Shown: positions 43,035 to 47,299 of the stretch, piece after piece
How the letters are laid out: every line of letters starts with the position of its first letter
Position numbering within the stretch: the stretch's first letter is position 1
DNA from: Shigella phage Sfin-1
Sequence record: NC_047998.1
Reading direction: 5' to 3' (one strand)
Length of the DNA stretch: 50,403 nt
Made by a program: the position numbers and the translations under genes
The notes under the pieces: generated by a model
Database searches by the model: none
What the model saw: only the letters and a program-made list of their open reading frames with translations
What the model was told of the DNA's origin: nothing

Positions 43035-45842
43035 TCATTTTTTGAACATCATTTCTACGCCCTGAGAAATTCCTCTCGGATCTGAACCGTTGTCAACTTT
43101 AACCTCCATACCCCTAACATCAACGACCGTCCCGCCTGCTGACTGGTTCGCTGCCTTCGGTGCGGATTTAGATGCGTTAAATCCAGAGGTTGCAACACTA
43201 CCCGCAGCGGCAGCAAGCGAGGTAACGGCAACGCCTGAAGATAAAGACCTAAAACCAGAGACGGCAGGCGTAGGAGTTGCCTGTGATGCCGCAGAAGCGC
43301 TAGAGGTCAATCCACTTGCAAAACTCCATGTCTTACCTCCCGTCATGCCTGAGATCGTATTGAAGATTACCATCTGAGCAATCATCTTGATAATCATGCT
43401 AATGATATTTTTCGCAAAGTCCTCAAAATTTGCCTTACCTGTAGTAAGGAATTGGGTCATCATATCACTCATTCCGTTAAGTGAACTTGACGCGATATCA
43501 TACACGTTGCCGTACATATCCATTGCAGAATCGCCGTAATCTGCAAATGCGCTTTCAGCACCAGCTAACCAGTCAGCGCGCTTGGCATCTTCCGCAGCAT
43601 AGTAATCATTTTGTGCCTTGATCATGTTCTGGAGTTTTTCATCTCCTTCGCTGCCACCTGCATTAATATAGTCAGTGGTGATCTTAGCCAATTCCGCTTG
43701 TCGTTCCATTTCTCGAGTGCTCATCCCGCGAGACGCGTTTAGCTGCTCTGTAGCTGCCGTCAAATCATTGACAAATTTCAGTGATTTATCGGTAAGTGCG
43801 TTCAACTGCTGCTGCTTAACAATCTGATCGCCAATCTCAGCCTTTTGTTTCGCAAGCTCTAAAACCTTCTCTTGGTTTGCAAGTAGTGCTTTTTCTTCCG
43901 CAGATAGCTGACGCTTAGAACTAGCTTCTCGAAGAACAGCAATTGTAGCCTCAGTCGTAAAAAGCGCCTTTCTCTGTGCTGATATTTTTTGCCCGATCTC
44001 CTTGTGCTCCTGCAAAACCTTAAGCTGCGCTTTGAGTGAAATTAACTCCTTATCGAATTGCTCTGTAGGTGAGCGTAAAATTTTCGACTGCTTATTTCGT
44101 TCACGGTTTCGCTTTTCGATCTCTTTAGCTTCTTCCTTGATGGCGTCCTTAGTTTCCTGGCTATACTGCTTTTCAAGAGTACGGCGCTGCTTCATTGCTT
44201 CAATGTATCCCATCTCACCTTTTTCAACACGGGCGTTGATGGCATCAAGCTCTGAAGCTAACTGATCGTAGTTGTCACGAGAACTTTTTACAATATTCTC
44301 CTGTTCCTTTAGTACATCAGCGCCGAAATCACTCATTCCAGGCAGAGACTGCGTAGCCTTAATTGCAGAGGCTATAAAGTTTGAGATGTACTCATCACCC
44401 TTCGCCAGAATCATTTTTACCTGAATTACCGTACCCTGAACTACGTCAATAATCAGGTTTAATGCTCCGAGAGTATGATCCCCAACCCACCCCCACGCAT
44501 CAGAGGCCCACTGCTTAATATCGTTCCACATTTTTTCCAGAGGGGTAGCATTATCAGCGATCGACTTCATTCGTTTTTCCATTACATCGGCGAATAATTT
44601 CGTGGCTTCAGACACTGCCTCTGTTTCACCCTTAGTACGGCTTAGCGTATCGATATATGTCAGTTGCCCTTTTTCTAAAAAGTTGTATTGCTCGTTAAGT
44701 TTAGCCAGACCCTTTACAGGATCGCTTGCGATTTTATCGAACTCAGCGATGATTTTACTTGCTGATTTACCGGTTGCTGTCGACCACTCAGCGGTAGCCT
44801 TTGTGATGTTCTGAATCTGCTCTCGCGTATACTTCCCCGTACTGGCAAGTTCAGTAACAATCTCACGAATGCTTGAAATTGTTGAATTGCTCGTCTGAGA
44901 CACCTTTTTAGCAACAGAATCAAGTTCTTCAGCCGTGACTCCTGCATAACCTCCAGTCTCAACAAGAGCCTTCTGCATATCAGTTATTGACTTGTAAGAG
45001 TCATAACCAGCTTTCGCAAGAAGACCTAAAGAGCCGACAAGAACACCAACACCAACTGTGACCGGATTAATATAGCTGAGCAATACCTTAAACGTATTCC
45101 CGATCCCGCCGAACGAGTCCTTGATTTGACCACCTTGCTGGATGGCAACCATCCAAACTGGCATACCGGACGCAAGAGATGTAACGACGTCGGTAATCTG
45201 TGCAGGAAGCATTCGCATTGCCTGCCTATATTGCCCCGCGCTAATACCTGCGGCATTCATGGCTCGACCCTGCTCTTTCAGTTTTGCGATCAGTGGCGCT
45301 GCTTCATTTGATAGTCCAAGCTGAGCCGCTTTCAGTTCCATTAACTCTGCGTGAGTTTTGCCAATAGCGTTAACCTGACTGTTCAGGGAATCCATGAACG
45401 CTTTGTTTTTCGCTGCTGCCTGCTCTTTTGCTTTCGCTTCCTGCAATGCTGCCTGCCCCTCTTCAGTAAGCATGGCTCGGCTGCGAGCAAGTTTTGCATT
45501 TTGCATGTCCAGCATTTCACCCAAACGGAAAAATGTTTCATCTGGAACAACGCCCTTTTGCCAGAGTTTATCAAGCTGCTGAGATGCAATCTTCAGCCTT
45601 TCCATTTTTGATACTGTAGGATCGATTGCCTTTTCTACAGCCTCGTACTCTTTGCGCTGGCGCTTAAGTTGCTCAGCGTGCTCTTTAGCCTTCTGTTTTG
45701 CAACCTCGGCCTCATTGATTAAAGACCCCATAGAGTCAGCGGCTTGGTCGTTAGCTTTTGAAAACTCTTTCAATGACTTGACGGCTCGCTGCACTGTCGA
45801 CACATCAACGTCAAGCGATAGACCTGCTACCTTATCAACCAT
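43035..45842 (-). CDS. Tail tape measure protein
   Basis: 935 aa, extended coiled-coil region and Gly/hydrophobic C-terminal part; start at the ATG with AAGGGGGG RBS. Confidence 0.9.
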
Positions 45843-45861
45843 ATAACCCCCCTTATATACA

Positions 45862-45882
45862 AAAAAACCGCCAGACGGCGGC
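45862..45882 (-). terminator. Attenuator or terminator hairpin between the chaperone and tape measure genes
   Basis: CCGCC-AGAC-GGCGG hairpin plus U7 on the minus strand. Confidence 0.5.
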
Positions 45883-46203
45883 TTAGTTATTCTGCTTAGC
45901 AATCATTTCAAGCGCTTTCGCTTCCATGATCCTAACGTCCTGCAATGCCAGTTCTTCATCTTCTATTTTATAGATTTTAAACAACATAGGCAAAACATTA
46001 TAGTCAAGACCATAAGCGCCAGCGCCTGAACTTCTCCACTGAGTGAGCATTGATGTAAAAACATTCCAAGCCTTCACCATTTCAGCGTCGCCAATTATCG
46101 TTTCAGGTTCCTCGTCTTCATAGTCTGAAAGACTTAAACCAACCGATCGCAATTGTTCCTCTGTTGGCGGCTTCTGATATAACAGATAGACCGCCCTTTT
46201 TAG
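45883..46203 (-). CDS. Tail assembly chaperone T-part, expressed as a G-T fusion by -1 frameshift
   Basis: ORF open in the -1 frame from the A_AAA_AAC heptamer (mRNA sense of 46203..46209) to 45883; no ATG of its own. Confidence 0.6.
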
Positions 46204-46517
46204 TTTTTTGCGCGGTGTCCGGCGAGAGCCTTGATGTAAGTTGCTGTCAGGTTGTACGCTGCTGAAGGATAATACTGAACCAGTTTTCGCGCATTTTCTT
46301 CGTTAAATTCTTCTTCAAGGTTCCATCCTGACGCGATCTTGGTAATGAACTCGCTGTCGTTCATTTCTCCTTGGTTGGCATACATATCCTGAACTTCTTT
46401 ACTGGAAAGGTGGCGTACAGTGAAAATGATCGTTGCATCTTCACCGTTAGGCATGGTGAAGGTGACTGGAAGTTTGAAGTCTGGAAGTTGACCAAGAACG
46501 AAATTAAATTTAGCCAT
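46200..46517 (-). CDS. Tail assembly chaperone (lambda gpG-like)
   Basis: 105 aa between major tail and tape measure genes; ends with a slippery heptamer and stop. Confidence 0.65.
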   Translation of the reverse strand: MAKFNFVLGQLPDFKLPVTFTMPNGEDATIIFTVRHLSSKEVQDMYANQGEMNDSEFITKIASGWNLEEEFNEENARKLVQYYPSAAYNLTATYIKALAGHRAKN

Positions 46518-46540
46518 GATATTTCTCCTGATTGGTTAAT

Positions 46541-46558
46541 GGCACTTTTTGTTAAAAG
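46541..46558 (+). promoter_or_regulatory. Isolated dyad element copy (TGGCACTTTTTGTTAAAA) without a -10 partner, antisense to flanking tail genes
   Basis: Sequence match to the early-cassette dyad; no -10 hexamer at 22 bp. Confidence 0.35.
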
Positions 46559-46630
46559 AGAATAGTGCAAACTTGATACGATGATTTTACAGAAATGAAT
46601 AAGGGGGCGCAAGCCCCCTGTGGATATGAT

Positions 46631-47299
46631 TTAGGCACCAGGTGATGCCAGAGCGGATGAAACGAAAGTGAAATCACCCTTCAGGGATACGGCGAGTTGT
46701 ACCGTTTCCATTTCGTTTACTTGCGTAGATGGAATGTCGTTAAAAGACAAGATACCAGCCCACATGCGCATCTCGTTCGCTTTTGGAACATACATCCGAA
46801 CCGCAGTTACCTGACCAGAAGAATCCAGCTTACGCAGAATAGGATAGATAGGGTTATCAAATTCGTGCGCGAAGGTGTACGTTAGCGAGATTGCAGACTT
46901 AAACGTCGGGATCTGCTGCTCTTTATCGTCAGACAAACACTGATAAGTGTAATACTGCTGCTCGCCGCCGTCCTGACCAATCTCCTGTACGCAAGGGATC
47001 TCAGTCCAGCCAGTAATTTTTGCAAAGCTCATTGTACCGCCAGCCGGGAAAACAAGAGCATCAGTAGTGTCAATCCCAGCAAGAGTAATGCTTGTTTCTT
47101 GGGCGTCAGTAACAATTAGTACTCGACTAACCATCTTAGCCCAAGTTGACTGAGTTACAATAACGTAATCACCTTTCGCCAAGTCGCCCTTAGATGCAAC
47201 CGTAGCAACAGGATTTTTTGCGTTAGTGACAGCGGTCGCCTCGATCTCTTCTCCGCGAGAGGTTTCCACGAAAATTTGCGCGCCATTTGGTAAGTGCAT
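46631..47299 (-). CDS. Major tail (tube) protein
   Basis: 222 aa directly upstream of the chaperone pair and tape measure. Confidence 0.7.
   Translation of the reverse strand: MHLPNGAQIFVETSRGEEIEATAVTNAKNPVATVASKGDLAKGDYVIVTQSTWAKMVSRVLIVTDAQETSITLAGIDTTDALVFPAGGTMSFAKITGWTEIPCVQEIGQDGGEQQYYTYQCLSDDKEQQIPTFKSAISLTYTFAHEFDNPIYPILRKLDSSGQVTAVRMYVPKANEMRMWAGILSFNDIPSTQVNEMETVQLAVSLKGDFTFVSSALASPGA

Follow-up and report, generated by a model that had tools for sequence, protein, structure and literature searches.

Shigella phage Sfin-1 carries two overlapping open reading frames (ORFs) in front of its tape-measure gene, and the second of them lies in the −1 frame of the first. The question raised by this arrangement is how the second ORF gets translated. 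It could have a start codon of its own, or ribosomes could reach it by slipping back one base at the end of the first ORF. [quoted passage not shown] Here we follow up this proposal. The window we analyzed is the whole stretch of 50,403 nucleotides in sequence record NC_047998.1, and all positions below are positions in this window.

Our analysis makes it very probable that a programmed −1 ribosomal frameshift yields two tail assembly chaperones from one mRNA. The anatomy of the locus, the conservation of its signal and the selection for coding in the −1 frame, which starts right at the slippery heptamer, are established. The frameshift site is real, the proposed interpretation is supported, and the site is already known in T1-like relatives of Sfin-1.

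The locus and its two products

The window is a Tunavirus (T1-like) sequence. The region 45700..46800 is 100% identical to the corresponding region of Shigella phages Sfin-4 (MN337573) and Sfin-6, and many other Tunavirus genomes are 90–99% identical to it. For the chaperone pair, T1 and the window share about 91% identity over 641 bases. All genes considered here are encoded on the minus strand, in the order tail tube gene, TAC_4 ORF, DUF1799 ORF and tape-measure gene. As in loci of the G/GT type, the ORF pair (46517..45883) is flanked by the major tail protein gene and the tape-measure gene:

46631..47299, minus strand, major tail (tube) protein gene, the upstream neighbour (PF08813, E = 8.6e-70; phrog_584)
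46602..46619, minus strand, terminator-like hairpin between the major tail gene and the chaperone gene (consensus scan)
46200..46517, minus strand, short tail assembly chaperone gene (G-like, 105 aa) with its stop codon TAA at 46202..46200 (ORF list; PF08748; PHROGs)
45883..46203, minus strand, −1-frame segment (T-like), 106 codons plus TAA at 45885..45883 (translation; Pfam; PHROGs)
45865..45884, minus strand, terminator-like hairpin that overlaps the stop codon of the −1 ORF, before the tape-measure gene (consensus scan)
43035..45842, minus strand, tape measure protein gene, the downstream neighbour, with its ATG at 45842 (PF06791, E = 7.9e-75, and PF09718; phrog_24)

The 105-aa ORF matches PF08748 (Phage_TAC_4) over its full length (E = 5.5e-37, 127.2 bits, with a Pfam cut-off of 21.1), and it also matches phrog_569. 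In the −1 segment, residues 24–101 (45901..46134) match PF08809 (DUF1799; E = 2.7e-12, 47.2 bits, cut-off 26), and the segment also matches phrog_680. Both halves are covered by phrog_17368, a single profile of 213 positions: the 105-aa ORF matches positions 1–107 and the −1 segment positions 109–212. Because this one profile covers both ORFs, fused versions must already be present in the PHROG database. A search of the PDB by sequence with the fusion returned nothing meaningful (the best E value was 0.084, to proteasome subunits).

The −1 frame is open from 46302 to the TAA at 45885..45883, which leaves 106 codons past the shift point. With C46203 read twice, the predicted fusion is 211 aa long. 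The sequence-only reading had estimated a fusion of about 210 aa, in good agreement with this length, and the coordinates it gave, including a −1 frame that is open to 45883, describe the sequence correctly.

The chaperone unit is flanked by terminator-like hairpins with T-runs, one just past the stop codon of the tube gene and the other about 20 nt before the ATG of the tape-measure gene. Some of the relatives' records carry a “terminator” annotation at these positions. Partial termination might contribute to the relative amounts of tube protein, chaperones and tape measure.

The slip site

The 105-codon ORF ends with the codons CGC GCA AAA AAC TAA, so that AAC is its last sense codon. Two features make up the putative signal:

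46203..46209, minus strand, slippery heptamer A_AAA_AAC in X_XXY_YYZ register (GCA AAA AAC), read from the sequence and invariant in 39 distinct relatives
46200..46202, minus strand, frame-0 stop codon TAA directly 3′ of the heptamer, invariant among close relatives

A heptamer in just this register, directly before the TAA at the end of the gpG-like ORF, is what had been noticed at the outset, and it is indeed there. Calling it a classic slippery site is only partly apt. The X_XXY_YYZ pattern is the canonical one, but A_AAA_AAC shifts weakly in E. coli reporters.

How unusual is such a heptamer? AAAAAAC occurs 19 times in the window, where 14.5 ± 3.5 occurrences are expected. The motif alone is therefore not unusual, but its placement is. 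The ORFs of at least 80 aa in the window contain 52 in-register X_XXY_YYZ heptamers, and none but the one at 46203..46209 both adjoins a real gene's stop codon and leads into a −1 frame that stays open for more than 100 codons. The heptamers that rank next are found in short, spurious-looking ORFs, one of which overlaps gene G in another frame. The heptamer by itself is not beyond chance; it is its conservation that places the site beyond chance.

This conservation is strict. The sequence G(C/T)A AAA AAC TAA is unchanged in more than 40 related loci, in which the identity of the G protein ranges from 51 to 100%. In a set of 39 distinct sequences, the three heptamer codons and the stop codon have a wobble entropy of 0, compared with a third-position entropy of at least 0.79 bits at all 31 codons examined upstream. 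The closing C is never a T in any of the 39 sequences, even though T would be synonymous in both frames (AAT for Asn, TTA for Leu). Likewise, the first A of the heptamer, which is the wobble base of GCA or GTA, is invariant among the 39 relatives.

The same signal extends to distant phages. Tls and Pocis76, whose G proteins are only 51–55% identical to that of Sfin-1, have the same A_AAA_AAC TAA site, and A_AAA_AAC TAA is also found in Veterinaerplatzvirus, Eclunavirus and Dhillonvirus. Vibrio, Pseudomonas and Stenotrophomonas phages carry G_GGA_AAC at the same position, followed by TAG or TGA. We gathered distant loci by three scans, each with a single protein; the scan with the protein of the Pectobacterium phage Taid gave one weak locus. 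Among the IMG/VR relatives of the Pseudomonas-type and Dhillonvirus chaperones (L058–L156), X_XXA_AAC, mostly as G_GGA_AAC, is directly followed by a stop codon in 83 of 84 distinct contexts. The stop codon is TAA, TGA or TAG, and the lone exception has one intervening codon.

Not every lineage has a heptamer. Rogunavirus (BECP10, L045), KLB16 (L053) and Taid (L051) have only an A_AAG tetramer, and Webervirus (Sweeny, L048) has an A_AAA tetramer in place of the heptamer, in each case 0–1 codons before the stop codon. Hence, not all members of the family need the heptamer. Within the PF08748/PF08809 family the type of recoding site differs between lineages while its position is fixed.

The two-frame layout is widespread as well. 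A tblastn search with the 211-aa fusion matched 1153 phage records, 1077 of which cover at least 80% of it. Among the matches listed, every record that covers both halves does so in two pieces, that is, in two frames.

Two entries seemed at first sight to be natural exceptions or in-frame fusions. The record of Shigella phage vB_SsoS_008 (MK335533, our loci L004 and L041) has many small indels, scrambled patches and homopolymer errors across the chaperone genes. In IMGVR_UViG_2706796530_000001 (L043), the slip site is one base short (A5 in place of A6), the G frame appeared to continue, and there are similar indels and homopolymer errors. We consider both to be poor assemblies or sequencing errors and rejected them as exceptions.

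The reading frame after the site

The region directly after the heptamer is informative about how the second ORF is translated. It contains two features of interest:

46153..46203, minus strand, the 17 codons that follow the shift, all of them ahead of any possible start codon (entropy and codon-difference counts)
46150..46152, minus strand, TTG with the SD-like sequence AGAGGA 5 nt upstream, the sole candidate start close to the beginning of the −1 ORF, which we judge to be unused

Over the 17 codons, the mean entropy at the three codon positions of the −1 frame is 0.22, 0.17 and 0.82. Counting codons that differ between pairs of sequences, we find 2555 synonymous and 1281 non-synonymous differences in the −1 frame, compared with 6 and 3987 in frame 0, and 534 and 3586 in the +1 frame. 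Among the exchanges seen are AGG/CGG (both Arg), GTC/GTT, AAG/AAA and changes within CCN. Purifying selection therefore acts in the −1 frame alone, which means that these 17 codons are translated in the −1 frame despite the lack of a start codon.

We return below to the possibility that the second ORF is translated independently, to which the same codons are relevant.

A model for the probable frameshift

In this model, most ribosomes would translate the G-like gene (46517..46203), stop at the TAA and release the 105-aa protein. A small fraction would slip back by one base on A_AAA_AAC. In this step, tRNA-Lys would re-pair from AAA to AAA and tRNA-Asn from AAC to AAA. The slipped ribosomes would then continue with CUA AAA AGG GCG and so on in the −1 frame until they reach 45883. 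Their product would be the 211-aa fusion with DUF1799 at its C-terminal end. It is the slip itself and its low frequency that we infer here.

By analogy with gpG and gpGT of lambda, both forms would coat the tape-measure protein through the N-terminal part that they share. The extension of the rare long form would serve to recruit the tail tube protein, and neither form would be expected in the virion.

We found no protein-level demonstration of the fusion in the literature for any T1-like phage. The joined coding sequence annotated in Tls is itself marked “non-experimental evidence”.

Efficiency and possible stimulators

How often could ribosomes slip at this site? Sharma et al. (2014, Table S3) surveyed slippery heptamers in E. 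coli. For A_AAA_AAC they report frameshifting of 0.163% with no stimulator, 0.189% with the IS911 stimulators and 0.739% with the IS3 pseudoknot. The corresponding values for G_GGA_AAC are 0.164%, 0.222% and 0.888%, and those for A_AAA_AAG are 0.291%, 4.26% and 39.0%. The background in this survey is about 0.04–0.07%. An A_AAC tetramer remains at background in E. coli reporters even with a pseudoknot (0.065%). According to the authors of the survey, AAC is weak because its re-pairing to AAA is non-cognate. Since A_AAA_AAC is weak in E. coli reporters, the long form is probably rare, about 1% or less. The yield of the fusion may be far below the ratio of about 1:30 reported for lambda.

The stop codon could matter too. 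In published work with bacterial and mammalian test systems, a stop codon directly after the heptamer lowered −1 shifting. The constant adjacent stop may also have a simple explanation, as it could just follow from the conserved Leu (CTA or CTG) that opens the −1 segment.

Downstream of the site there is one candidate stimulator:

46166..46195, minus strand, candidate stimulatory hairpin, GGCGGU...GCCGCC with an inner CUG/CAG helix, 7 nt after the heptamer (fold −15.4 kcal/mol, z = −2.55)

In its 93-nt context the candidate has a z of −2.64. Across 19 relatives 88.5% of the cells pair, compared with at most 56.5% in slid controls. The covariation amounts to 2 compensatory changes only, and the arms encode conserved Ala and Pro-Pro. 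The hairpin is present in most Tunavirinae and Tempevirinae, while Dhillonvirus and the Vibrio phage Fayden have hairpins of another sequence at the same spacing. Some relatives keep the heptamer without the hairpin (L033, L046, L049, L056 and L058). Judged from these patterns, a stimulatory role of the hairpin (46195..46166) is plausible but unproven. Upstream of the heptamer we found no conserved SD-like stimulator among the 39 distinct sequences, where the Gly codon at that place varies freely.

One could go further and argue that X_XXA_AAC with its adjacent stop codon is a tuned signal, shared from T1-like coliphages to Pseudomonas-type and Vibrio phages. Release factor and slippage would compete at the site, a hairpin would aid the slip in some lineages, and the G:GT ratio would be far below that of lambda. 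The ratio might even respond to the level of release factor in the host or to queuosine in tRNA-Asn. We are doubtful about this idea and give it only a small chance of being correct. If it is true, it would be a refinement of a known mechanism rather than a new one.

Which tRNA slips

The site and the product could be as we describe them and the slip still differ in detail. A P-site tRNA-Asn could move from AAC to AAA while the UAA, which is decoded slowly, is waiting in the A site (a “shifty stop”), or tRNA-Lys could slip on A_AAA before Asn is decoded. The predicted junctions tell these possibilities apart in part. A single slip of tRNA-Asn gives AKN-LKR, just as the tandem slip does, whereas a slip of tRNA-Lys gives AKK-LKR.

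The placement of the stop codon would fit such a single-tRNA slip: it directly follows the heptamer in 83 of the 84 distinct contexts from two more distant clades, whether as TAA, TGA or TAG, and the related lineages with a single-codon A_AAG or A_AAA site have it 0–1 codons before the stop. Published studies also indicate that the codon after the heptamer can occupy the A site during slippage. On the other hand, a tRNA-Asn slip confined to the P site has no need for the first A of the heptamer, which is invariant, and the A_AAC tetramer stays at background (0.065%) even when it is helped by a pseudoknot. In addition, a stop in place of the following codon lowered shifting instead of raising it. 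We therefore regard a single-tRNA slip as unlikely and prefer the tandem slip on the full heptamer.

Independent translation of the second ORF

Most GenBank records read the second ORF as a gene in its own right, and many annotate a separate short “hypothetical protein”. For this to be correct, translation of the ORF would have to begin at an internal ATG or at the TTG (46152), and no fusion would be made. In the Sfin-1 window the TTG does have a plausible ribosome-binding site (AGAGGA, 5 nt upstream).

The comparison with relatives speaks against this possibility. The codon at 46152, number 18 in the −1 segment, reads TTG in 17 of the 36 distinct relatives compared; in the other 19, T1 included, it is TTA, CTT or CTG. 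What is kept at this position is the leucine and not the start codon, and the SD-like sequence is not kept in the relatives either. We found no start codon for the downstream ORF that is conserved among the 36 distinct relatives. For 14 of these relatives, codon 42 is the first position with a candidate start, an ATG. A product that began there or further downstream would lack part of DUF1799, which spans residues 24–101. Moreover, few codons of the −1 frame are conserved as strongly as the 17 upstream of the TTG, which remains unexplained if these are not translated. With a TTG that is not conserved and an ATG that lies inside DUF1799, independent initiation does not explain the data, and we think that there is very little chance that it accounts for the second ORF.

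The proposal we started from had stated that the −1 frame has no start codon except a TTG. This needs a small correction. No start is conserved and the TTG is the only one near the 5′ end, but further in there are in-frame ATGs at 46080, 46050, 45987 and other positions, as well as a GTG, all downstream of the TTG at 46152. Termination at the TAA followed by reinitiation can be rejected for a similar reason as above: there is no start in the −1 frame for 17 codons, and these codons are conserved as protein.

The combination of TTG and AGAGGA is present in the Sfin-1 window and absent from T1 and most relatives. A minor, non-conserved independent start at 46152 in Sfin-1 itself is conceivable next to the programmed frameshift.

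Slippage of the polymerase and absence of function

Productive slippage of E. coli RNA polymerase usually needs runs of about 8–9 or more identical bases. The slip site contains a homopolymer of six A, and if RNA polymerase stuttered on it and added one A to some of the transcripts, the outcome for the frame would be the same as that of a −1 shift, with AKK-LKR at the junction. Transcriptional slippage is a known route to fusions of this kind, as summarized in a review. Six A are short for slippage, though, and relatives carry G_GGA_AAC at the same position, with only three A. A stuttering polymerase also does not predict the invariant closing C, given that T would be synonymous in both frames. 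The G_GGA_AAC variants, which lack a long homopolymer, point to ribosomal and not to polymerase slippage, and we consider the latter to be extremely improbable.

The sequence comparisons effectively refute the view that the overlap is due to chance, to a sequencing error or to a decaying gene without any function. AAAAAAC is indeed not enriched in the window, and two related entries show indel errors here. However, more than 1000 phage records share the arrangement in two frames, its signal does not vary, and purifying selection acts on both frames.

Comparison with known systems

The model of lambda G and GT, which had been suggested from the sequence, holds for the arrangement and for the presumed mechanism, but not for the proteins, which belong to other Pfam families than lambda G and T. 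Both phages have a pair of overlapping ORFs with the major tail gene on one side and the tape-measure gene on the other. The second ORF of the pair occupies the −1 frame and lacks a start codon of its own, and the first has an X_XXY_YYZ heptamer near its end (G_GGA_AAG in lambda). At the level of the proteins we could not detect any sequence similarity to lambda G and T (BLASTP E values of 2.6 and 0.30). The lambda proteins belong to PF06894 and PF06223, in contrast to PF08748 and PF08809 for the Sfin-1 pair. The proteins of the Sfin-1 pair do not match PF06894 or PF06223 at E values up to 0.01, whereas the proteins of lambda do. The heptamers differ as well. That of lambda ends with AAG, works efficiently in E. 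coli and is located five codons before the stop; that of Sfin-1 ends with AAC, is weak and adjoins the stop. For lambda, a ratio of about 1:30 has been reported, and the roles of both products in tail assembly have been summarized in a review.

The true family of the Sfin-1 pair is the TfmA/TfmS “tape measure chaperone” pair of T1-like phages. TfmA/TfmS of Tls and the pairs of other Drexlerviridae (T1, Stevie, Skenny, Sweeny, U136B and Pocis76) belong to the same protein families and have the same gene order, and we see no difference of substance between them and the pair of Sfin-1. In Tls (AY308796), Pocis76 and Sweeny the fusion is already annotated as a joined coding sequence. The genome papers of Stevie, Skenny and U136B mention the frameshift, which is described as conserved in T1-like phages; the paper on the re-annotation of TLS does not discuss it.

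A close parallel for the signal itself comes from IS1. Its insA/insAB′ frameshift uses the identical A_AAA_AAC (A6C), and a −1 shift of about 1.6% has been proven in E. coli, with no established stimulator. IS1 differs in that its product is a transposase, and its proteins are unrelated to the phage chaperones. A frame-0 stop immediately 3′ of the heptamer is likewise found in Rous sarcoma virus gag-pol and in barley yellow dwarf virus. Both are RNA viruses of eukaryotes, with other heptamers and strong downstream structures.

Annotation and significance

The main value of our results is that they correct an annotation. The locus should be described as a single tail assembly chaperone gene that encodes a 105-aa protein and, by frameshifting, one of 211 aa. 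The record of Sfin-4 and most of those for Tunavirus leave the fusion unannotated.

Tail assembly in lambda requires both forms in the right ratio. By this analogy, the site is probably essential in Sfin-1 too. If T1-like phages are recoded or engineered, the slip site should hence be preserved.

It is also mildly interesting how a weak heptamer placed against a stop codon yields the amount of long chaperone that is required. As this large phage family depends on a heptamer with poor performance in E. coli reporters, it offers a natural case in which to study how very low frameshift ratios are set.

The labels given to this locus in GenBank and RefSeq are inconsistent. Among them are “hypothetical protein” and, in one T1 record, a truncated ORF of 55 aa. 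RefSeq entries have “tail length tape measure protein” on both chaperone ORFs, and in the Sfin records the tube protein is labelled “tail fibers protein”.
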